From positions 8,232 to 72,231 of the forward strand of contig JBGATK010000006.1 in NCBI GenBank assembly GCA_044229265.1: a stretch of DNA of 64,000 bases, given 5' to 3'. Source of the stretch: Minisyncoccia bacterium. Lineage in GTDB: Bacteria > Patescibacteriota > Minisyncoccia > Phycocordibacterales > UBA9973. Position 1 is the first letter of the stretch; each line of letters opens with the position of its first letter. Below the pieces are notes generated by a model. That model searched no databases, was not told where the DNA came from, and was given only the letters and a program-made list of their open reading frames with translations. The position numbers and the translations under genes were made by a program. Positions 7,230-45,301 of the stretch are shown piece after piece.

Positions 7230-8654
<1,425 letters not shown>

Positions 8655-14710: not shown

Positions 14711-15808
14711 ATGAATGTACTAATTTTTATAGTTATCTTGCTGGTACTAGTAATCGTTCATGAATTTGGGCATTTTTTTACTGCGAAAAAGTTTGGTATA
14801 CGAGTAGATGAATTTGGTTTTGGTTTTCCGCCAAAAATTTTTGGCATTAAAAGAGGGGAAACAGAGTATACTTTTAACGCACTTCCGATTGGTGGTTTTG
14901 TGAAAATTTTCGGTGAGAATCCGGATGAGGATAGTATAAATGGTCCTGACGCAAAACGTAGTTTTGTAAATAAGCCAAGGTGGCAGCAAGCTATAGTGCT
15001 TTTTGCAGGAGTATTTGCTAATTTTTTACTAGCATGGATACTTTTTTCTTTCGCTTTTTTCTCGGGCATGCCTACATCGGTGCGAAGTGAAATGCGTGAT
15101 TATATAGTGGGCGGAACGAATCTGGTAATTATTTCTGTTTTGCCTGATTCGCCAGCAGAATTAGCAGGGCTCTCTTCTGGAGATAAGATACTAGGTGTTT
15201 CGTCTGTAAAACATAAATTAGAAACAATTACATCAGAAAGTTTTAGTAATTTTGTTTCTAGCCATGGCGGAGAAAGTTTGAATATTACTTACACAAATAA
15301 AAATAATGAAGAAAAAAATATTGAAATTATTCCTAAAATAAAAGAAGGTGAGAGTAAAGCTTTAATTGGGATTTCTATGGATGAAATTGGAGTAGTGAAA
15401 TTCCCTATAGGGCGTGCATTTTATGAAGGTTTTAAAATGAACTTTTTTGTTATTAAAGCTACTGCTGTAGGATTGTATCAATTCATAATACAGAGTGTTC
15501 AAGGCAAAGCAAATTTTGATGCTGTGGCAGGGCCTGTAGGTATGGCCGGCATAGTGGGGGATGCTTATAAATTTGGTTTCGCTTATTTAGTATCTTTTAT
15601 GGCTATACTTTCTGTGAATTTAGGAGTATTAAACCTAGTGCCATTTCCAGCTCTCGACGGTGGGCGATTACTATTTTTACTTATAGAAAAGATAAAAGGT
15701 TCACGCCTCTCACCAAAATTTGCGAATACAGCAAATGCTATAGGATTCTTTATCCTAATAGGGCTTATGATTCTAGTTACTTATCACGACATTGCAAAAT
15801 TATTTTAA
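14711..15808 (+). CDS. rseP: RIP site-2 zinc metalloprotease RseP (M50) with PDZ domain
   Basis: HEFGH zinc motif at the N-terminus, PDZ segment, NLVPFPALDGG motif. Confidence 0.9.
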   Translation: MNVLIFIVILLVLVIVHEFGHFFTAKKFGIRVDEFGFGFPPKIFGIKRGETEYTFNALPIGGFVKIFGENPDEDSINGPDAKRSFVNKPRWQQAIVLFAGVFANFLLAWILFSFAFFSGMPTSVRSEMRDYIVGGTNLVIISVLPDSPAELAGLSSGDKILGVSSVKHKLETITSESFSNFVSSHGGESLNITYTNKNNEEKNIEIIPKIKEGESKALIGISMDEIGVVKFPIGRAFYEGFKMNFFVIKATAVGLYQFIIQSVQGKANFDAVAGPVGMAGIVGDAYKFGFAYLVSFMAILSVNLGVLNLVPFPALDGGRLLFLLIEKIKGSRLSPKFANTANAIGFFILIGLMILVTYHDIAKLF

Positions 15809-17555
15809 ATGGAAAACAGGAATTGCCACCCCGAACGAAAGCAAAGCTTCATACGGGGCAGGAAATTGTAAAAGTATGGAATATAAACCACAAAATGTAA
15901 TATGCCAGAATTGTAGTGGTGAATTCATAATCGAACCAGACGATTTTTCTTTTTATGAAAAGATGAAAGTTCCAGCGCCGCATGTCTGCCCAGACTGTCG
16001 TTTTAAAATGCGCGCAATTTTTAGAAATGAAAACAAATTATATTCAGGAAGAAAATGTGATTTATGCCAAAAAAGTATAATTGCAATGTATAACCCAAAA
16101 TCTCCTTACAAGGTATATTGTCCCGAGTGTTATGCAAGCGATAACTGGGACCGCTCTTCATACGCCAAAGATTATGATTTTTCTAAATCATTTTTTGAGC
16201 AACTAAAAGAGCTAACATTATCTGTGCCCAAAATGAATTTGTATGTTACTTATTTAAATGGACCTGTAATAAATAGCCCTTTTAACAATGGTTTTGGCGG
16301 GGCCAAGAATTGCTATTATCTATTTAATGGAGGTCCTGCGGAAAATACTCAGTATTCTCGAGGGGTAAAAGATGTAAAAGATATTTCGGATTGTTATTTT
16401 TCCACTAAAATAGAAAATTCTTACGAAGCTATAAATGTACACAACTCTAACAAGATATTTTTTAGTCAGAATGTTACAAATTCCATAGAGTCAGCTTTTC
16501 TTATTAATTGCAATAACTGTATAAATTGTATTGGTTGTGTAAATTTAAACAATAAAAGTAATTGTATTTTAAATGAACAGTATACAAAAGAAGGGTACAT
16601 AGAAAAAGTAAATGAAATATTTGGTAGTTATGAAAAGATAGAAGATTTTAAAAAATCATTTTATGAGTTTTCTTTAACTTTTCCGCATAGAGAAAACAAT
16701 AATATTAAAACAGTAGATTCTACAGGAGATTATCTGAGTGAATGTAAAAATGTTAAAAATAGCATGGAAATTACTCAGAGCGAAAATGTTAAAGACGCTT
16801 TCTCTTCTAAGCAACTCAAAGATTCTATAGGAGTTTTTGGTTATGGGTTCAGTTCTGAATCTTTACTCGAAGTCGTAGCTACAGGTCATTCAAGTAATAT
16901 TATAGGTTCGTATGGCATAGATGAATCTATGAATATAGAATATAGTTTTTGTTGTTTTCCAAATAATGCCTATTTAATTGGCTGTGATTCCTTGAAAAAT
17001 TCTAAATACTGCATTTTAAATAAACAATACACAAAAGAAGAGTACGAGAAAATTAGAGAACATATTGTAAAAGAATTAACAGACCTTGGTATTTATGGCC
17101 TCATGATGCCACCATCCATCGCACCTTTTGCTTACAATGAAACTATCGCGCAAGATAACATGCCCCTGACCAAAGAAGAAGCCATTGCGCAAGGGTTTAG
17201 ATGGGAAGATGATATTCAGAAAACTGAAGGCAAGGAGACTATAAAACCAGAGCAAATTCCAGACCATATTCGTGATGTAGAGGACAGTATTACAAAAGAA
17301 ATTTTGTGTTGCATAGAGTGCAATAGGAATTATAAAATTACCGAACAAGAATTACTATTTTACCGAAAAATGATTTTGCCTATTCCAAGGAAATGTTTCT
17401 ATTGTCGCCACAAGAGCCGTATAGAAAAACGTGGCCCATACAAATTTTGGAACAGAAATTGTGCCAAGTGCGAAAAAGAAATTATCACAAATTATTCTCC
17501 GGAAAGGCCAGAGATAGTGTACTGTGAGCGTTGTTATCAAAGTGAAGTCTATTAA
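15792..17555 (+). CDS. cysteine-rich repeat protein with duplicated N- and C-terminal tandem zinc-ribbon modules (start may be 15877)
   Basis: CxxC..FYxKM..PxPxxCxxCR..RN..C..C..Y.P..P..VYC..CY occurs at both termini. Internal repeats NxxCILNxQYTKEEY. No catalytic motif recognised. Confidence 0.6.
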   Translation: MQNYFKWKTGIATPNESKASYGAGNCKSMEYKPQNVICQNCSGEFIIEPDDFSFYEKMKVPAPHVCPDCRFKMRAIFRNENKLYSGRKCDLCQKSIIAMYNPKSPYKVYCPECYASDNWDRSSYAKDYDFSKSFFEQLKELTLSVPKMNLYVTYLNGPVINSPFNNGFGGAKNCYYLFNGGPAENTQYSRGVKDVKDISDCYFSTKIENSYEAINVHNSNKIFFSQNVTNSIESAFLINCNNCINCIGCVNLNNKSNCILNEQYTKEGYIEKVNEIFGSYEKIEDFKKSFYEFSLTFPHRENNNIKTVDSTGDYLSECKNVKNSMEITQSENVKDAFSSKQLKDSIGVFGYGFSSESLLEVVATGHSSNIIGSYGIDESMNIEYSFCCFPNNAYLIGCDSLKNSKYCILNKQYTKEEYEKIREHIVKELTDLGIYGLMMPPSIAPFAYNETIAQDNMPLTKEEAIAQGFRWEDDIQKTEGKETIKPEQIPDHIRDVEDSITKEILCCIECNRNYKITEQELLFYRKMILPIPRKCFYCRHKSRIEKRGPYKFWNRNCAKCEKEIITNYSPERPEIVYCERCYQSEVY

Positions 17556-17615
17556 ATGCTACTGTGCCCTTCGTAGCTTTTGCGAAGTAGGGTCAACAGG
17601 AAGTTTATTAAATAT

Positions 17616-18197
17616 ATGAAAAAAATTATTGAATTAAATACAAAAAAAGAAATAGCCTTTGTAAGGTCAGATTTACCGATGATGGTGCATGGGGTAGAGC
17701 ATTCTGGTGCATCACTCCTCTCTATAACCATAGCAACCATTTTGCATGCAGGTGGTGAAAAGCTTTGTATTTTTACTGCTTATCCTATGGCAAAAGATGA
17801 ATTCTTGGCCGAAGTATCAAACCCTGAAGATGTATTTTATTTAGAGAATTTTGAGGATTTAACTAAGGCTAATAATTTCCAGACGATAATTGTAGAAAGT
17901 GGTAATATTGAATTGTTCAAAAAAGTTATAGCTGAAAAGGAATTATTAGGGAATAGAATTGTATTTATTAAAAATATTGAAACAATAAATCAGCCTACTT
18001 TAGAAAAATTGCAGGATTATGATTTTATGGTTTCTGGTGATTTTAGTACAAATATTTTGCAGAAAGATTTTAATGATTTAGAATACAAGACAAAAATTTT
18101 CCTTTCTCCACTTTCTCCGTTTATCGTTCCTGTTTTGGCGAAGTATCAAGCTTTTTTACAAAAAGGAACAGAAGAAAAAATTATTATTATTTCTTAA
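17616..18197 (+). CDS. hypothetical protein (193 aa), possibly co-transcribed with the upstream Cys-rich gene
   Basis: ORF with a leader hairpin related to the atpD/dnaK leaders. Alternative start at 17580. Confidence 0.5.
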   Translation: MKKIIELNTKKEIAFVRSDLPMMVHGVEHSGASLLSITIATILHAGGEKLCIFTAYPMAKDEFLAEVSNPEDVFYLENFEDLTKANNFQTIIVESGNIELFKKVIAEKELLGNRIVFIKNIETINQPTLEKLQDYDFMVSGDFSTNILQKDFNDLEYKTKIFLSPLSPFIVPVLAKYQAFLQKGTEEKIIIIS

Positions 18198-18705
18198 AAT
18201 TCTCGAAAAATAATTTCTCAGAAATACTATCTATTTTATTTGTTGTAATTATTACGAGCTCGGTGGTAAGGCCCAAATCTTTTTTAATATTTTCAAAAAG
18301 ATATTCATATGGAAAAGGGGAGATCCAAGCAGAATTTTTGAGGCACACAAAGCCAGCTTTTTTGAGGAGGTATCTTAGGCTCTCCCGCTCGGCTTTTCTA
18401 CTCTCTGGTAAATCAAGAAGTATAATACGCCAAAACCCATCCCAATTTGGGTTTACTAGAGCTTCTTCGCCAGAGACAAGTAGGCTATTTAAGCGTTTTT
18501 TACCCTCTTTAGTGAGGCGGGCATAGCTTTGGTGTTCTGACTCATGTAGCTCTGCCAAACCTCCTTCTACGAGGTTTTTGAGGCTTCTAGCGAGGGCGTA
18601 TTTGGATTTAGTATTATCTTTTTCTTTTAAAAATTCTAAAGCTACGGCTTGCTTTTCGCCTAGTTTTTTAAGGATTTTTTTGGAAAAGTCGTTTTTACTT
18701 GACAT
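18187..18705 (-). CDS. PaaX-like winged-helix transcriptional regulator, divergent from dnaK
   Basis: N-terminal wHTH, C-terminal WDGFWRIILLDLPE..R..LRYLLKKAGF..LKNSAWISPFP pattern typical of PaaX-family C-domains. Confidence 0.55.
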   Translation of the reverse strand: MSSKNDFSKKILKKLGEKQAVALEFLKEKDNTKSKYALARSLKNLVEGGLAELHESEHQSYARLTKEGKKRLNSLLVSGEEALVNPNWDGFWRIILLDLPESRKAERESLRYLLKKAGFVCLKNSAWISPFPYEYLFENIKKDLGLTTELVIITTNKIDSISEKLFFENFKK

Positions 18706-18814: not shown

Positions 18815-18860
18815 ACTAATTTATCCTTCGTCGCTAAAGCTATGAAGGACAAGAAAACAT

Positions 18861-20756
18861 ATGTCAAAAATAATAGGTATAGACTTAGGTACAACAAATA
18901 GTGCGGTGGCTATCATCGAAGGAGGACAGCCAAAAATTATAGAAAATATAGAAGGAGTACGAACTACACCTTCTGTGGTGAGTATTGCTAAAAATGGTGA
19001 TAGACTGGTAGGCTTGCTTGCAAAACGTCAAGCTGTCACAAATCCTGAAAATACCGTTTATGGTATCAAGCGTTTTATGGGCCATAATTTTGAAGATCCA
19101 GAAGTGCAAAAGGATTTGAAGAATGCATCATTCAAAATTCAAAAAGGATCAACTGGTGGAGTGGAAGTTAAGATTGGCGATAAATGGATGCGTCCAGAAG
19201 AAATCTCTGCCATGATTTTAACTAAAATTAAAACTGATGTTGAAGCAAAATTAGGAACTAAAATTACCGAAGCAGTGATCACCGTGCCAGCATACTTTAA
19301 CGATGCACAAAGAAAAGCTACCAAAGATGCAGGAGCTATCGCTGGGCTTGATGTAAAAAGAATTATCAACGAGCCTACAGCTGCAGCCCTTGCCTATGGT
19401 TTCGATAAAAAGAAAAATGAAAAGGTAGTGGTGTATGACTTTGGAGGAGGAACATTCGATGTGTCAGTTCTCGAAATCGGTGATGATGTTATAGAGGTGA
19501 AATCAACTGATGGAGACTCCCATTTAGGAGGTCGTGATATTGATCACAAGATTATAGCTTGGATCGCAGAAGAATTTAAAAAGACCTCTGGTGTGGATGT
19601 TCGTTCTGATAAGCTTGCTCTTCAGCGTCTTGATGAAGCTGCAGAAAAAGCAAAGATAGAGCTCTCTACTGCTATTGAAACAGAGATAAATATTCCTTTC
19701 ATTACGAGTACCGAAGCTGGACCTCAACACCTCTTACTCAAGATGACTCGTGCACAATTAGAAAGTATTGCTGATGAGTACATAACTCGTTCAATTGAAA
19801 TCACAAAGAAAGCTTTAGCTGCTTCTGGTTTCAGTATGAATGATATAAATGAAATCATTATGGTTGGAGGTCAAACTCGTATGCCAAAGATTGTAGAAGA
19901 AGTTAAAAAAGTTTTTGGTAAAACTCCAAACCTCTCTATTAATCCAGATGAAGTTGTAGCACTTGGAGCTGCTGTGCAAGCTGGAGTTCTCGCAGGAGAT
20001 GTTAGAGATGTACTTCTTCTTGATGTCATACCACTTTCCCTTGGTATTGAAACTTTGGGTGGTGTAGCTACAAAATTAATTGAAAGAAACACTACAATCC
20101 CTGCAAATAAATCTCAAGTATTCTCTACAGCAGCTGATAATCAAACCAGTGTAGAAATTCATATAGTACAAGGTGAACGTCCTATGGCGAGCGACAACAA
20201 ATCTCTAGGTCGTTTTATTCTAGATGGAGTTCCACCTGCACCTCGTGGCATGCCACAGATAGAAGTCTCCTTTGATGTCGACGCAAATGGTATATTAAAT
20301 GTTACAGCTAAAGACAAAGCTTCAGGTAAAGCAAATTCTATAAAAATAGAAGCAAGCTCAGGTCTTAAAGATGAAGACATTAAAAAAATGCAGGCTGATG
20401 CGGAAATGCATGCCGAAGAAGATGCAAAGAAAAAAGAAATGGTTGATGTGAAAAATACTGCCGAGATGATACTCTATACAGCTGAGAAAGCAGTAAAAGA
20501 TGCTGGTGATAAAGTTTCTACTGAAATTAAAGCTGGTGTCGAAGGTAAAATTACAGCCCTCAAATCTGCAAAAGATGGTAGTGATATGGAAGCAATTAAA
20601 AAAGCTACCGAAGAACTCTCAAATGAAATGCAAAAGATAGGTGAGGCTATGGCGAAAAGTTCACCCGAGTCCGATGGAGGCGGACAGGCGAATCAAACAC
20701 CCGAACCTCAACCAGAAGAAATTAAAAACGAAAATCCTGAAGAGCCAAAAAATTAA
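18861..20756 (+). CDS. dnaK: molecular chaperone DnaK (Hsp70)
   Basis: [18 protein letters not shown], 631 aa. Confidence 0.97.
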
Positions 20757-20770
20757 TATTAAAAAAACAA

Positions 20771-20796
20771 AAAAACCCGAATTCGGGTTTTTTTGT
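20771..20796. terminator. intrinsic terminator after dnaK (bidirectional-looking)
   Basis: aaaaaaa-cccgaattcggg-ttttttt. Confidence 0.85.
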
Positions 20797-20797
20797 T

Positions 20798-20826
20798 TTG
20801 CTTTGCTCCTCTCTAGTTGTTATAAT
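20798..20826 (+). promoter_or_regulatory. sigma70-like promoter TTGCTT-17nt-TATAAT. The downstream gene would be nearly leaderless
   Basis: -10 ends 8 nt before the ATG at 20835. Confidence 0.45.
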
Positions 20827-20834
20827 TTAAGTAT

Positions 20835-23075
20835 ATGCATGGAGGGGAAGAAGATAAAAAAAGTAATGGCGATTTACCTGTAAATCGTGATTTAACCTAT
20901 ATCGGTAAAACAACGTATCGTGATAAAAACACGCTTTTTGGAATTAAAAGAAAAGATAGGCGTCAACATGTATATGTGCTCGGTAAATCTGGTACTGGTA
21001 AATCTGTTCTTCTTTCAAATATGATTGTGCAAAATATTCAAAATGGCGACGGTGTCGCTGTGGTGGATCCGCACGGAGAATTAGTCGAAGGAATACTTCA
21101 GTCTATCCCCGAAAATCGTCTAAAAGATGTAGTGTATTTTAATCCTGCAGATGTAGACTTTCATATTGGTTTTAATGTCTTAGAATTAGTGGATTTAAAA
21201 TACAAACACTTAGTTGCTTCTGGGCTCATGGGTATATTTACCAAAATTTGGGCTAATGCTTGGAGTGCGCGTATGGAATACATTCTGAACAATACAATCT
21301 TGGCTCTGCTCGATACTCCAGGCACCACACTTCTCGGTGTTCCTCGTATGCTTGTAGACAAAGATTATCGTCAACAAATAATAAATAATTTAAAAGACCC
21401 TGTTATTAAAGCTTTTTGGGTGCACGAATATGAAGCTTGGCAAGAAAAATTTCGTAATGAAGCGATCGCTCCTATTCAAAATAAAGTTGGGCAATTTCTC
21501 TCTACTTCTGTTATTCGCAATATTGTTGGACAAAGTAAAAGTACTATAAATATTTTTGATATGATGAATCAAGGGAAAATTTTCCTCGTGAACGTTTCTA
21601 AAGGACGTATTGGTGAAGATAACTCAAAACTTATCGGTGGTATGATTATTACCAAAATTCAGCTGGCTGCCATGGAGCGTGTGCGTATACCAGAAGACGA
21701 GCGTAAAGATTTTTATCTATATGTCGACGAATTCCAAAATTTCGTTACTGATTCTTTTGCTTCAATTTTATCTGAAGCTCGTAAATACCGCCTGAATTTG
21801 ACTGTGGCCCACCAATATACTGCTCAGCTTGTAACCAAAGAGAGTTCAAATGTTCGTGATGCTATTTTCGGCAACGTAGGAACTATGATAGTTTTTAGAG
21901 TTGGTGCGGATGATGCTGATTTTCTAGAAAAAGAATTTGCACCAGAATTCACACCAGAAGATTTAGTGAATTTGCCTAACTTTAAAATTTACCTAAAACT
22001 TATGATAGATGGCATAACCTCAAGGCCATTTTCTGCAAAAACATTACCTCCGATAATTAAAAAGCTTGATCATACTATAGAAGAACAAGTTATTAAAATG
22101 TCTCGAGAGCTTTATTGTCGCCCTCGTGATACTGTCGAAAATGAAATAAATCAGTGGAGTGGTATGTCTATAGACGATGGAGCTTCTGGCGGGGGAAATA
22201 CTGGTGAAAAATTCAAAGCAATTTGTTCGAATTGCGGTAAAGAAACTTTTGTGCCTTTTGAACCTACACCAGGCAGGCCTGTGTATTGCAAAGAGTGTGT
22301 AGCAAAAATAAAATCTGGCGAAGTAAAGCCAATACGAGGCGTTACGGGTCAAGAATTTCGTGACGATAGTAAATACTTTAAACCACTTGCTGATTTAGGT
22401 ATAGAATTTGAAAGTGGGGGTAGTGTTCAAAAAGAAAAACCAAAAGTTTTTCAAAATAATATTCCTAAACCTCCAGCTATGCCGTATATACCAAGAGTAA
22501 ACAATACTGCTCCCATGCAACAGCCACAAAAAACTTTTACACAAAATGTAAAGAAAGTATTAAATACAAATTTAACAGCACCATTTCATAAAAATAACGC
22601 TAATAATAGTGCTGGTAAACCCAGTGTGCCTAATAAAAATTTCGCAGATAAACCGAAAGAAAATTTAGCTCTTAAAGAAATTTTGAATAAAACCTTAAAT
22701 GAACAAAAAATTATTGAACTAAAAAAAGAAGAAAAAATAATAGAAGACAAGAAACCGACTCCAGCACCAATTTCCTTAAATACTTTACAAAGCAAACCCG
22801 TGAGTAATGATATAAAACCGACAAATGATCGCTCCGCCGGAGCCGATAAAATGAATTCTTTGAAAGATTTGCTTGCTAAAGTAGAGGGTGAGAGAAAAGA
22901 AAACGAAAAACCAATAGAAAATAAACCTCCAGAAATTCCTATTCCACAAAAAAATACACCACCCCGTTTTGATCAAGCTCAAAACACCCCTCCTTTAAAA
23001 GGTGGGGAAGAAAAAATACAACCCAAAGAAGTACCAGAAGAAGTCCTGAAGAAAATTCTAGAAGATGAAAATTAA
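20835..23075 (+). CDS. soluble TraD/TraG/VirD4-like (type IV coupling protein family) P-loop ATPase with C-terminal zinc ribbon and Pro/Lys-rich tail
   Basis: Walker A GKSGTGKS, DPHGE, Walker B YVDEFQNF, RKYRLNLTVAHQ, no N-terminal TM helices. CSNCGK..RPVYCKEC ribbon. Confidence 0.7.
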   Translation: MHGGEEDKKSNGDLPVNRDLTYIGKTTYRDKNTLFGIKRKDRRQHVYVLGKSGTGKSVLLSNMIVQNIQNGDGVAVVDPHGELVEGILQSIPENRLKDVVYFNPADVDFHIGFNVLELVDLKYKHLVASGLMGIFTKIWANAWSARMEYILNNTILALLDTPGTTLLGVPRMLVDKDYRQQIINNLKDPVIKAFWVHEYEAWQEKFRNEAIAPIQNKVGQFLSTSVIRNIVGQSKSTINIFDMMNQGKIFLVNVSKGRIGEDNSKLIGGMIITKIQLAAMERVRIPEDERKDFYLYVDEFQNFVTDSFASILSEARKYRLNLTVAHQYTAQLVTKESSNVRDAIFGNVGTMIVFRVGADDADFLEKEFAPEFTPEDLVNLPNFKIYLKLMIDGITSRPFSAKTLPPIIKKLDHTIEEQVIKMSRELYCRPRDTVENEINQWSGMSIDDGASGGGNTGEKFKAICSNCGKETFVPFEPTPGRPVYCKECVAKIKSGEVKPIRGVTGQEFRDDSKYFKPLADLGIEFESGGSVQKEKPKVFQNNIPKPPAMPYIPRVNNTAPMQQPQKTFTQNVKKVLNTNLTAPFHKNNANNSAGKPSVPNKNFADKPKENLALKEILNKTLNEQKIIELKKEEKIIEDKKPTPAPISLNTLQSKPVSNDIKPTNDRSAGADKMNSLKDLLAKVEGERKENEKPIENKPPEIPIPQKNTPPRFDQAQNTPPLKGGEEKIQPKEVPEEVLKKILEDEN

Positions 23076-42529: not shown

Positions 42530-45301
42530 ATGAAGAAAATAATTTTAGGTTTAGGTCTTTTTGTTTTTGGTTTATTTTTTATAACTAACTCAGTCTTTGC
42601 TGCAAGTGTAGGTCCCAATAATCCAAGCTCAGGTGTTAATACCACTGGATTTGGTTCAACTGCTTGGTCTAACTCAAGTAATATAACTTCAGTAGGTTCT
42701 CCTTATGCTACTGTTACATTAACTCCTGGATCAAGTTCAAATTACTTAAAGGCAACTAGCTACGGATTTAATATACCTTTGTCGGCAACAATTGATGGTA
42801 TTGAAGTTAAAATTGATAGAAAAGGAGAACAAAATTTAGGTTTTGGTTTTAGAGATGATGTATTAAAATTAGTTAAAGGAGGAGTTATTAGTGGTGACGA
42901 TAAGAGTTCTTCTAATACATACCCTACAACACTTTCAACAAAAACTTATGGTGCAAATAATGATAAGTGGGGTTTATCTTGGACTGCAGCAGATATTAAT
43001 GCAAGTAATTTCGGTGTAGTGTTGTCAACAAAAAGTAATTTAATTATTTCTACTTTGACAGCTTCAGTTAACTCTATTCAAGTTATTGTGCACTACACTA
43101 TAACTACTGGCGATTTACAAATCACAAAAACAGCAATTGGAGGCAATAGCACCTTTAGTTTTACTGGCGGCGCTGGAAGTTTTAATATTTCAACTACAGC
43201 TGGCACAGGAAATACTACTCGCACAAATTTAACTCCTGGCACTTATTCTGTAACTGAAACAGCACAATCTGGTTGGGATATGAATTCCAATACTTGTACT
43301 GACGTAGTAATTACTGCAGGCAATACAAGTAATTGTACTATTACGAATACAAAACGAGGTTCTATTACAGTATACAAAGATGTAAAAAATCCAGATGAAG
43401 GTGCCGTAGTAGATGGCCATTGGTTTGGCATAAAATTAAATGATGCAAACCCACAAAATATTTCTGAATTTAATTCTTATACTTATACAAATTTAGTCCC
43501 TGGCACATATACTATCACTGAAGACGTAGATCCTGATTATGATTTTATGACTTTTTCAGCTGACAATGATCCTGAAAATTCTGGTGCGCAAATTACAGTT
43601 TCAGCTGGTGCAAATACAAACCTAACTATTGTAAATAAACAAAAAAAGGGAAGTATCATCGTAAATAAAACCGTTACCAATCCAAATGGTGGGAAAGCTG
43701 TAGCTGGTAATTTCTACTTCTCATTAAACGGTGGTGAGGCAATACAATTTATTCAAGATGAAATGAATTCATTATTCGGTTCATTTACTCTTCCTTCTGT
43801 AAACCCTGGCGCATTTTCTATCGCTGAAGTTATGATTCCATCTGGAAATTACGCTATCTCATATTCTGGAAATTGTAGTGGACTGCTAGAAAGTAATGGT
43901 TCTAAAACTTGCAATATTACAAATAGTGATATTCCAGAAGGCAAAGGTGCTATTACTGTAGTAAAAAATGTAATCAATGATGATGGAGGAATGATGGTAG
44001 CTAGTGATTTTCCTTTATATATTAATCCTACAGAAGGTGAAGGAATGATGGCAGAAAATGGCGTATCTTATTTCCTAGATCCAGGCACATACAACGTAAG
44101 TGAAATGATGAGTGAATCTTTAGCTTCAAAATACATGCAAACTTCACTTGTTTGTATAAATGGCAAAACAGAAACTTCTGGACAAGTAGTTTTATCTGCG
44201 CAAGCTTCATGGGTTTGTACTATTACAAATAACGATAAGCCTGCAAATTTAACTATAGTAAAAAATGTTGTAAACGATGCTTGGAATGCTACTACACATG
44301 ATGGTACTTTCACTATAAATATTTCAGGTATGAAAGAAGGCTTAATGCTCACTACTACTGAAAGCACTGCACAAACTACAATCGAAATGAATAAAGGCTC
44401 TTATGCTTTGTCTGAACCAATTTCAAATGATTGGTATATCGAATCTATTTCTTGCGGAGAAAATTATTATTCAGAAGAAGAAATTCTTTCTGGAACTCAA
44501 ATTACTTTAGAAAATGGCCAGAACATGACTTGCACTTTTGTAAATAAAAGAAAAACAGGAACTTTAATTGTAAATAAAACTGTATCAAATGATGATGGTA
44601 AAACTCTGACCTTGAACGATTTCCCTGGCTTCACAGTAGCTGGCAGTGAACCTGTTCCTTTCGAAGCAAATGAAGAACAAGAAGGTCCTATTATGGCTGG
44701 TTCAAAAACTTTGACCTTAGAACTAGGAACTTACACAATTTCAGAACCTATCACAGAAGGATACTTTAAAGTTCCAGAAAATTGTGATCCGGTTTACATT
44801 ACTTGGAATCAAACATCTACATGTTCTTTCCGAAATGAAGACATAGGATTCTATATTCACTCTGGTGGAGGTGAAGGTGGTGGCGGTTCTGTAGCAGGTG
44901 CATTTACTGAAAATACAGAAAATACAAATACAACTCCCGCTGAAACACCAAAAGAAGAAATAAAAGGTGAGGTTTTAGGTGCGACTTCTTGCAATACAAA
45001 ATACTTAGAGAATTTCTTATTCTTTGGTAAAAAGAATCCAAAACTGGATGTAGAAAAATTACAAGTATTTCTAAATGATGATTTAGGCTTAAACTTAAAA
45101 ATCGACGGACATTATGGAATTTCTACTAGAAATGCTGTATCAGCTTTTCAAGAGAAAAATAAAAAAGAAGTTCTTGATCCTTGGATTCCATTTGGAAAGA
45201 AAGATGGAAAGGGTACAGGTAATGTATATAAAACTACACTACGCTGGATAAATATGACCAAATGTCCAGATTTAAATCTGCCAATGCCAGAATTACCTTA
45301 A
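42530..45301 (+). CDS. large secreted surface protein with tandem Cna-B/prealbumin-like repeats and a C-terminal peptidoglycan-binding domain
   Basis: signal peptide, at least six repeats containing PGTYxxTE..GY, C-terminal LQxFLN..G..L.IDGHYG..T..AV..FQ. Confidence 0.8.
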   Translation: MKKIILGLGLFVFGLFFITNSVFAASVGPNNPSSGVNTTGFGSTAWSNSSNITSVGSPYATVTLTPGSSSNYLKATSYGFNIPLSATIDGIEVKIDRKGEQNLGFGFRDDVLKLVKGGVISGDDKSSSNTYPTTLSTKTYGANNDKWGLSWTAADINASNFGVVLSTKSNLIISTLTASVNSIQVIVHYTITTGDLQITKTAIGGNSTFSFTGGAGSFNISTTAGTGNTTRTNLTPGTYSVTETAQSGWDMNSNTCTDVVITAGNTSNCTITNTKRGSITVYKDVKNPDEGAVVDGHWFGIKLNDANPQNISEFNSYTYTNLVPGTYTITEDVDPDYDFMTFSADNDPENSGAQITVSAGANTNLTIVNKQKKGSIIVNKTVTNPNGGKAVAGNFYFSLNGGEAIQFIQDEMNSLFGSFTLPSVNPGAFSIAEVMIPSGNYAISYSGNCSGLLESNGSKTCNITNSDIPEGKGAITVVKNVINDDGGMMVASDFPLYINPTEGEGMMAENGVSYFLDPGTYNVSEMMSESLASKYMQTSLVCINGKTETSGQVVLSAQASWVCTITNNDKPANLTIVKNVVNDAWNATTHDGTFTINISGMKEGLMLTTTESTAQTTIEMNKGSYALSEPISNDWYIESISCGENYYSEEEILSGTQITLENGQNMTCTFVNKRKTGTLIVNKTVSNDDGKTLTLNDFPGFTVAGSEPVPFEANEEQEGPIMAGSKTLTLELGTYTISEPITEGYFKVPENCDPVYITWNQTSTCSFRNEDIGFYIHSGGGEGGGGSVAGAFTENTENTNTTPAETPKEEIKGEVLGATSCNTKYLENFLFFGKKNPKLDVEKLQVFLNDDLGLNLKIDGHYGISTRNAVSAFQEKNKKEVLDPWIPFGKKDGKGTGNVYKTTLRWINMTKCPDLNLPMPELP

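Follow-up and report, generated by a model that had tools for sequence, protein, structure and literature searches.

Catalytically weak or dead domains of the VirD4/HerA/FtsK fold, such as D2 and D3 of EccC and the archaellum protein FlaH/ArlH, act as substrate receptors or regulators. True type IV coupling proteins (T4CPs) combine VirD4/TrwB nucleotide-binding and all-alpha domains with an N-terminal membrane domain. A survey of the Patescibacteria counted 5,713 VirD4-type homologues in 2,918 genomes, of which only 148 lie near virB4; its authors raise exaptation, and no role is known for these homologues (PMC12102498). Separately, a zinc-finger type spaced CxxC-x17-CxxC was found to bind zinc in vitro by inductively coupled plasma mass spectrometry (ICP-MS) in small proteins of Methanosarcina, for which the authors propose a role in transcription, and the motif was also noted in TFIIB-family factors (PMC12704099). 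Here, we analyze a 64,000-nucleotide (nt) stretch of a Minisyncoccia bacterium genome (contig JBGATK010000006.1; the whole stretch is hereafter the window) and describe a pair of adjacent genes, G1 and G2, within it. G1 belongs to a very large, undescribed protein family restricted to the Patescibacteria lineage, in which two double zinc-finger modules flank a predicted beta-solenoid core that has been exchanged wholesale as a cassette in a sister strain, while G2 has the fold of the VirD4/HerA ATPases.

The window (GC content about 33%) is a housekeeping stretch of a Patescibacteria genome, with atp genes, priA, mreB, frr, rseP, dnaK, tRNA synthetase genes and dnaB. Locally the order is rseP, G1, G2, paaX (minus strand), dnaK, a long ATPase gene and cysS (minus strand). 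The original prediction had set the pair between rseP and a divergent regulator of dnaK, and both flanks are confirmed, the regulator being PaaX-like; the 64 kb contain no second G1 and no second ATPase of this kind. An open reading frame (ORF) of 587 codons with a TTG start is present at 15792–17555 (+), and 587 residues had been taken as the length of the protein. Homologues are nearly all 553–558 residues long, and their lengths and alignment place the first methionine of G1 at ATG 15876; the sequence AGGAAA sits 10–15 nt 5' of this codon, and initiation at TTG 15792 would overlap the end of rseP. For these three reasons the product is most likely 559 residues, starting at ATG 15876, rather than 587. 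The TTG start, 84 nt upstream of the ATG and overlapping rseP, is used in database entry P0001 (587 residues) and in the sister allele (586 residues). G1 of the window is soluble and acidic (isoelectric point, pI, about 5.7) with 30 cysteines; the family as a whole has a pI of about 6.4, a net charge of −5.5 and no transmembrane segments.

The double zinc modules predicted at the two ends of G1 are real duplicates: the N- and C-terminal copies are 39% identical over 80 residues (BLASTP E 9e-20) and align as family profiles with an hhalign probability of 99% (E 4e-19). Each is built as CxxC-x24-CxxC, a basic helix and CxxC-x17-CxxC, giving eight CxxC pairs and four predicted metal sites, and none of the 16 module cysteines varies among 59 orthologues. 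The modules are net basic (about +3 and +5), the x17 spacing falls at residues 61–85 and 529–553 (nt 16056–16130 and 17460–17534), and the C-terminal end of the protein is a conserved ...CYQxEVY. This second finger has exactly the spacing of the families zf_Tbcl, zf_Tbcl_2 and TIGR04272. The window protein itself scores below the cut-offs of all three, with 19.4 bits (cut-off 27) for Pfam zf_Tbcl_2 (PF23477) in the C-terminal module, 16.1 bits (24) for Pfam zf_Tbcl (PF13451) at residues 35–75 of the 587-residue ORF, and 9.3 bits (36) for NCBIfam TIGR04272. At E ≤ 0.01, zf_Tbcl_2 matches 44 and zf_Tbcl 29 of the 59 orthologues, and one paralogue (P0163) clears the zf_Tbcl_2 cut-off at 28.6 bits. 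However, these models describe single fingers of about 40 residues that cover about 15% of G1 and lack its solenoid, its linker and the paired layout.

Two consecutive treble-clef-type fingers that form one protein-binding module are known from eukaryotic LIM domains, which are the only PDB sequences touched by the G1 family profile (E 0.014–0.9, not significant; best match PDLIM5 at E 0.014). The spacer between LIM fingers is 2 residues, whereas that of G1 is about 19 residues and includes a helix; the finger ligands of G1 are all cysteines and the family is bacterial, unlike LIM. We found no evidence for common descent and reject LIM membership on the insignificant match and the wrong finger spacer. 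Metal binding by G1 is a prediction from its cysteine pattern.

An AlphaFold2 model of G1 was built on the 59 orthologues, with a mean predicted local distance difference test score (pLDDT) of 81.7 and a predicted template-modeling score (pTM) of 0.80. The model predicts that the middle of the protein consists of two beta-solenoid halves, each followed by a helix. The halves correspond to an internal duplication of about 105 residues (residues ~142–248 versus ~289–397; hhalign probability 98%, E 8e-14). The repeats NCILNEQYTKEGY / KYCILNKQYTKEEY pointed out in the original prediction are real but are not short repeats; they are the tails of this duplication and belong to the solenoid. The solenoid interior holds a ladder of positions spaced 9–12 residues apart, occupied by Cys in many paralogues; in others, the window protein among them, they hold Ser, Thr, Val or Ala. 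Since they are replaceable in this way, the ladder cysteines are structural, and we mostly reject them as metal ligands. Also outside the fingers, a CxxCxxCxxC stretch (C212/C215/C218/C221) is 76–92% conserved, and C370 and C379 are 90–95% conserved. Between helix 2 and the C-terminal module lies an acidic linker (net charge −8 in the window G1, family mean −5.8) that ranks with the best conserved regions of these proteins and is poorly ordered in the model (pLDDT 46–61).

Searches of Pfam, NCBIfam, PDB sequences, PADLOC and PHROGs returned no match to G1 outside the fingers and no family spanning the whole protein, and no signal peptide, toxin domain or enzyme domain was found in it; the absence of an enzymatic motif noted at the outset thus holds against Pfam, NCBIfam and the PDB. 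A Foldseek comparison of the model with the PDB gave nothing at E < 0.027 and template-modeling scores (TM-scores) of at most 0.13. Known beta-solenoid proteins (CsgA-type proteins, phi29 gp12, insect and plant antifreeze proteins, left-handed beta-helix (LbH) acyltransferases) share 4–8% identity with G1 and no profile match. In contrast to them, G1 is presumably cytoplasmic rather than secreted, and it has a solenoid of two duplicated halves, interrupted by helices and flanked by zinc modules. With no hexapeptide-repeat Pfam match and no close fold match, G1 is not assigned to the LbH acyltransferases or gamma-carbonic anhydrases; with neither a signal peptide nor curlin repeats, it is not assigned to curli or functional amyloids. 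For the succession of double finger, two solenoid halves, acidic linker and double finger we know of no counterpart among solved structures or annotated families, and this holds even if the link to ATPases described below fails.

An indexed search with G1 gave more than 4,488 matches. An exhaustive search of 50%-identity representatives gave 3,562 at E ≤ 1e-3 and at least 1,354 at E ≤ 1e-30; the latter number of clusters places the family among the larger unexplained Patescibacteria protein families encountered here, in a group that makes up a large share of bacterial diversity and whose lineage-specific proteins are mostly unexplained. Almost all of the best 150 representatives have the 540–600-residue layout. 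The family is not described in the literature found by full-text searches, and its named relatives are all labeled hypothetical. They belong to the Patescibacteria (Nomurabacteria, Paceibacterota, Parcubacteria, Jorgensenbacteria, Staskawiczbacteria and Azambacteria), with a single exception on a 5.3-kb contig (L048, JBBAAT010000205.1) in a 'Bacteroidales' metagenome-assembled genome; it carries a Patescibacteria-type ATPase and two G1 genes, and its label is probably a binning error rather than a sign of transfer.

The original prediction had described the two genes as an accessory pocket, a label that does not suit a huge lineage-wide family. Orthologues of the window G1 are 60–73% identical across species, comparable to frr and rseP in the same loci, and the base composition at G1 shows no anomaly. 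We detected no relatives in phage genomes or IMG/VR contigs and, given this and the normal base composition, reject a mobile-element origin; nor do anti-phage defense (PADLOC) or phage (PHROGs) profiles match G1 or G2. Our locus survey covered 82 loci from species-representative genomes and other assemblies which, with the window, make 83 loci holding 233 G1-family genes. G1 orthologues are conserved like housekeeping genes, yet the family reaches up to 12 tandem copies per locus, the longest arrays having 12 (L059), 9 (L044) and 8 (L053 and L057) members. In one 731-residue homologue (P0304) a complete G1 body is preceded by a GNAT acetyltransferase domain, either as a genuine fusion or because gene calling merged two genes.

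Comparison of paralogues within six genomic arrays revealed that conservation differs by region. The zinc modules are 42–59% identical in five of the six arrays (37–42% in L049, not above its core), the linker 40–50%, the solenoid halves 33–41% and helix 1 only 22–35%, making fingers and linker the most conserved parts of G1 and the core less so.

A sister genome, syntenic with the window from priA to cysS, revealed how the core can change. Its three assemblies (NCBI GCA_964617005.1, ENA ERZ4216102 and Logan SRR12487046) carry the same G1 allele class. Neighboring proteins are overall 92–99.7% identical to those of the window (MreB 99.7%, the T4CP-like ATPase 99.6%, RseP and DnaK 98.9% each, G2 98.4%), and G1 is 70.7% identical. 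Sliding nucleotide identity is 94–99% up to position ~16000, falls to 47–74% as far as ~16990 and then returns to 87–100%, with sharp boundaries. Because only this central stretch of about 1 kb drops to 47–74%, we conclude that the solenoid core was exchanged by recombination between conserved ends, and that in the sister strain it was exchanged wholesale, as a cassette. The sister cassette is at most 54% identical to that of any of 58 orthologues. A pair of loci considered as a further test of such a swap (L011 and L112) proved to be the same genome.

The related marine single-cell genomes AH-259-L07 (L057) and AH-259-L05 (L059) carry G1 arrays of 8 and 12 genes. Only two members of these arrays clearly correspond (85–88% nt identity); the rest match over short stretches (65–79% identity), often close to the ends of genes, a pattern suggestive of rapid turnover of the arrays.

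G2, a 193-residue protein whose start lies exactly 60 nt past the G1 stop, as predicted, had been left as a downstream gene of no assigned kind. Its structure model (pLDDT 95.2) has the RecA-like fold of the HerA/FtsK/VirB4/VirD4 superfamily, and we found 39 homologues. At the Walker A position G2 reads G-V-E-H-S-G-A-S, with Ala32 in place of the lysine nearly invariant and Ser33 invariant, and at the expected Walker B strand it reads F-I-K-N-I-E, in which the canonical Asp-Glu is missing. G2 is thus not a canonical P-loop ATPase, having neither the GxxxxGK[ST] of Walker A nor the hhhhDE of Walker B. It matches no sequence family in Pfam, NCBIfam, PADLOC or PHROGs. We conclude that G2 is a degenerate HerA/VirB4/FtsK-fold P-loop domain, predicted to be catalytically dead, from the superfamily shared with the neighboring ATPases. 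It is comparable to the degenerate partner domains EccC D2/D3 and FlaH/ArlH, but differs in its missing Walker A lysine and has no sequence-level match.

The pairing of the two genes is conserved. We examined G2 in eight contexts (the window, the sister genome at L166–L169, L001, L015, L029, L083, L084 and L085), in seven of which it directly adjoins a confirmed G1 paralogue; in the eighth, L001, two G1 paralogues flank it, and a single gene separates it from the nearer one. In a ninth context, a JGI contig for which gene lengths only were used, G2 follows five G1-sized genes (555–588 residues). The pair is therefore conserved wherever G2 exists, contrary to the possibility, named with the original prediction as one that would speak against it, that the two genes might be found together in no relative. 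G1, in turn, mostly occurs without G2.

In many relatives, G1 paralogues directly adjoin one or two VirD4-like ATPase genes, and the ATPase is present in 37 of the 83 G1 loci. The recurrent, Nomurabacteria-type gene order runs rpsI, grpE, G1, G1, paaX-like (minus strand), dnaK, a long VirD4-like ATPase, G1 (1–4 copies), rsmE (minus strand), a short VirD4-like ATPase, dnaJ, a membrane protein, arginase (minus strand) and cysS (minus strand). It is a classical grpE-dnaK-dnaJ(-rsmE) operon to which G1 genes and two ATPase genes have been added, at two insertion places. The PaaX-like regulator, divergent from dnaK, occupies the place usually held by hrcA, and its position next to dnaK is kept in many relatives. 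A role of the system as a replacement for ClpB was rejected on the evidence of L085, which holds G1 and G2 and also encodes ClpB.

The long ATPase of the window has the VirD4/TrwB nucleotide-binding and all-alpha domains of coupling proteins. It passes the Pfam cut-offs for TrwB_AAD_bind (43.9; cut-off 20.5), T4SS-DNA_transf (42; 20.1) and TraG-D_C (31.5; 22), and further matches are to DUF87 (Pfam) and to mad8 and HerA models (PADLOC/PHROGs). Its ribbon passes the curated cut-offs of zf_Tbcl_2 (51.3 bits) and TIGR04272 (55.2 bits) and has the same CxxC-x17-CxxC spacing as G1, as the original prediction had recognized; it is not at the extreme C-terminus, however, but just past the ATPase domain (nt 22224–22298, residues 464–488 of 746), and lies 4.7 kb rather than 3 kb from the end of G1. 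All long ATPases have one such ribbon after the ATPase domain (CxxC-x15-20-CxxC, x17 in the window), whereas the short ATPases have none. Unlike true coupling proteins, these ATPases have no N-terminal membrane domain and do not stand next to virB4: none of 26 long and 27 short homologues has a transmembrane segment (maximum 19-residue hydropathy below 1.6), Walker A lies at residues 39–93 across all 53, and neither virB4 nor channel genes were detected in the window or the G1 loci with the queries used.

A reverse search from the ATPase set the scope of this association. Among 80 metagenome ATPase loci, G1 was present in 11 (8 of the 37 loci of at least 12 kb), and the ATPases of these 11 are all at least 61% identical to that of the window. 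We therefore reject a universal linkage of G1 and ATPase; the linkage is real but lineage-specific. The earlier suggestion that the shared ribbon points to a common partner is strengthened by the synteny in relatives.

We tentatively favor a reading of G1 that we would place short of an even chance, in which it is a cytoplasmic, zinc-stabilized protein without enzymatic activity that serves for recognition or as an adaptor, its ends staying constant for docking while its core varies. Within the cell it could act as an adaptor or as a sensor. The two LIM-like, net basic double zinc-finger modules would serve as constant 'handles' and the conserved acidic linker as a second constant part, while the pseudo-dimeric beta-solenoid would present a variable 'display' surface. 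In this picture the family gains members through tandem duplication and new cores through recombination, which exchanges the solenoid cassette while keeping the conserved ends. The constant parts would dock onto conserved machinery, most likely the nearby soluble VirD4/HerA-type ATPase with the same CxxC-x17-CxxC ribbon; G2, where present, could be a receptor or regulatory subunit of ATPase fold and presumably without catalysis, and the variable core would bind changing ligands. Effectors with a conserved VirD4-binding domain, such as the XVIPCD effectors of Xanthomonas, and specificity subunits such as HsdS, whose variable domains lie between conserved segments, follow the same logic, and the likeness is one of logic only: docking is left to a conserved part and function to a variable one, paralogues are several, and recombination takes place at the conserved segments.

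Several observations weigh against this proposal. In the window, a strong terminator parts dnaK from the ATPase gene, and G1 lies beyond the regulator gene. The reverse search found G1 at a minority of ATPase loci, and ATPases at 50–61% identity sit instead after secD, secF, a gene for a helix-turn-helix (HTH) protein and one for a 451-residue membrane protein, with no G1 within 10 kb. G1, for its part, has other settings as well: about 10 loci place it between mur ligase genes, L010 and the window place it after rseP, and it forms pure arrays with no ATPase within 10 kb. Comparison of G2 with the neighboring ATPases by hhalign gave E values of 0.15–0.78, which is no sequence link, and a sequence-level paralogy between them is unsupported. 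The cassette swap is absent from a second close pair of genomes (L040/L073), and the three assemblies with the mosaic allele may come from one sample. The cross-species identity of orthologues fits a housekeeping role better than an arms race, and the variety of unrelated settings in which G1 is found likewise speaks against a simple arms race. Lastly, G1 may have an unrecognized active site or extra metal site, in view of the conserved CxxCxxCxxC stretch.

The alternative that we find most interesting, though we consider it unlikely, is that G1 is a translocated effector of the orphan VirD4-like ATPases. The terminal modules and C-terminal tail would be the signal, DnaK, DnaJ and GrpE would keep the protein competent for transfer, and the variable solenoid would bind or act on targets in the host cells of these symbionts. 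Such a role would suit arrays that lie, within the Hsp70 operon, right beside one or two VirD4-like ATPases and differ widely between L057 and L059, constant ends around a hypervariable core with strain-level cassette exchange, and a phylum in which most VirD4 homologues lie away from virB4 and have no known role (PMC12102498). However, the ATPases have no membrane anchor, virB4 and channel genes went undetected in the window and the loci with our queries, and four structural zinc sites are unlikely in the substrate of an unfolded-protein pathway; in addition, orthologues are highly conserved across species, G1 lacks a signal peptide and any domain of a toxin or enzyme, and it often occurs without a nearby ATPase. 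It is improbable, too, that the neighborhood is merely historical, with G1 acting alone and its link to dnaK, the ATPases and G2 marking a site where one lineage tolerates insertions. Many species-level genomes repeat the same order and orientation of genes, and their operons carry G1 copies at two distinct sites, G2 with its ATPase fold stands beside G1 in seven of eight contexts and one gene away in the last, and G1 and the long ATPase have a ribbon type in common; a historical origin would nevertheless explain the occurrence of G1 in several unrelated contexts, the distant ATPase homologues without G1 neighbors and the strong dnaK terminator in the window.

Other roles have been weighed for the protein itself. 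That G1 binds nucleic acid, its basic inter-finger helices clamping DNA or RNA from either end of a rigid spacer and working with FtsK/HerA-type translocases in DNA uptake, segregation or processing, strikes us as quite improbable: the whole protein is acidic (family pI about 6.4, net charge −5.5) with a very acidic linker, no known DNA- or RNA-binding family matches it, the sole weak likeness is to LIM protein-binding domains, and a hypervariable core is unexpected in a general binder. What speaks for it are the four zinc fingers with inter-finger helices (net charge about +3 and +5), a neighboring ATPase from the DNA-pumping FtsK/HerA/TrwB superfamily with a Lys/Pro-rich tail, the ribbon type common to both proteins and the transcription role proposed for the Methanosarcina proteins (PMC12704099). 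Still less probable, we judge, is a structural or cytoskeletal element whose solenoid polymerizes end to end or through the zinc modules, in the manner of bactofilin or curli, with paralogues building different assemblies. The pseudo-symmetric two-half build with the same modules at both ends, the high conservation of orthologues and the location of G1 in the priA-mreB-holB-frr-rseP neighborhood (window and L010) or between mur ligase genes in about 10 loci, an envelope context, are in keeping with this idea, but neither sequences nor profiles relate G1 to bactofilin or curlin, the compact model (pTM 0.80) leaves neither end of the solenoid open, both being occupied, and a wholesale core swap is hard to square with a self-assembling lattice. 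We hold it highly improbable that G1 is an enzyme or metal-cluster protein, with an unrecognized site in the solenoid (as between the subunits of left-handed beta-helix acyltransferases and gamma-carbonic anhydrases) or a cluster at CxxCxxCxxC. The conserved cysteines outside the fingers (C212/C215/C218/C221 at 76–92%, C370 and C379 at 90–95%) and the homologue fused to a GNAT acetyltransferase (P0304) would agree with catalysis; the lack of a hexapeptide-repeat Pfam match, the Foldseek TM-scores of at most 0.13, the ease with which most ladder cysteines become Ser, Thr, Val or Ala, in the window G1 too, and the better conservation of fingers and linker than of the core argue the other way.

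A bolder reading, which we regard as doubtful, would make the G1 family, as a repertoire of hypervariable, zinc-capped solenoid proteins, the partner that the Patescibacteria's thousands of orphan VirD4-like ATPases without membrane domains have been missing; the proteins would be recognized through the shared zinc modules with the help of Hsp70 and G2 and then exported to the host or remodeled. If true, recognition or delivery coupled to an ATPase would here take a new form, one that underlies symbiont-host specificity. The family offers a testable candidate partner for VirD4-like ATPases that published work could not assign to secretion systems, and a possible handle on how Patescibacteria symbionts vary an interaction surface. 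Coordinates of the features discussed are collected in Table 1.

Table 1. Features of the G1–G2 locus in the window (position 1 is the first nucleotide of the window)
Feature	Position	Strand	Description
G1 (gene 1)	15876..17555	+	559 aa; ORF extends upstream to TTG 15792
N-terminal double zinc module	15903..16130	+	Residues 10–85; CxxC-x24-CxxC treble-clef type, basic helix, CxxC-x17-CxxC
Hypervariable cassette of G1	16000..16990	+	About residues 42–372; exchanged in sister genome
Predicted beta-solenoid half 1 and helix 1	16299..16679	+	Residues 142–268; motif NCxGCxNLxNK / ILNEQYTKEGY
Predicted beta-solenoid half 2 and helix 2	16680..17087	+	Residues 269–404; motif GCDxLKN / YCILNKQYTKEEY; lower model confidence
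Acidic conserved linker	17088..17285	+	Residues 405–470; GxYGxxxPxxxxPFAYNETxAQDxxPLTKEEA...W
C-terminal double zinc module	17310..17534	+	Residues 479–553; layout as N-terminal module
Leader hairpin before G2	17562..17599	+	Core CCTTCGTAGCTTTTGCGAAG at 17568–17587; copy of the leader-hairpin family at 17568–17592
G2 (gene 2)	17616..18197	+	193 aa, ATG start; minimal HerA/VirB4/FtsK/TrwB-fold P-loop domain
PaaX-like regulator	18187..18705	−	PF20803 E 1.8e-19; Cas2-like middle domain; 3' end overlaps G2 by 11 nt
dnaK (Hsp70)	18861..20756	+	Locus anchor for G1 paralogues and ATPases in relatives
Soluble VirD4/TrwB/HerA-like ATPase	20835..23075	+	746 aa; Walker A near residue 50; Lys/Pro/Asn-rich tail after ribbon

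The secD-secF-HTH-451-residue protein-ATPase order was seen in L107, L121, L127, L131, L143, L147, L149 and L153, where the HTH protein is sigma-70-region-4-like. The 451-residue protein has an N-terminal membrane segment and could be the missing anchor of the orphan coupling proteins; these loci are presumed to come from more distant lineages.

Near-identical leader hairpins of the type CCTTC-TCGC-TAAAGC-GAAGG form a small family and stand 12–25 nt upstream of the start codons of atpD, G2 and dnaK. The one before G2 has a folding energy of −15.9 kcal/mol (z −2.1). The motif CCTTCGTnGCT...GAAG occurs only before G2 and dnaK (18825–18848), two matches against 0.01 expected, and a close variant lies 12 nt before atpD (7266–7290); the G2 hairpin was rightly described as of the atpD/dnaK type in that its core is common to the dnaK leader with a close variant at atpD. 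In this form the G2 hairpin is not conserved in relatives, and Rfam has no family for the hairpins before G2 and dnaK (the atpD copy lies outside the region scanned). The copy at atpD makes it unlikely that the PaaX-like regulator uses the hairpin as a heat-shock operator, an idea further weakened by relatives without it and by the absence of an Rfam family. The leader hairpins could instead be mRNA-stabilizing or translational elements of highly expressed genes.

Between dnaK and the ATPase gene, a terminator-like hairpin at 20764–20799 is a perfect 16-bp palindrome, bidirectional, with a folding energy of −20.1 kcal/mol (z −5.4); it also drew several spurious sub-threshold matches to Rfam leaders. 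Elsewhere in the window, a penicillin-binding protein gene is followed by a gene for a 923-residue protein (42530–45301) with SpaA-type prealbumin-fold domains, as in Gram-positive pilus and adhesin proteins, which may be a surface adhesin of this symbiont.

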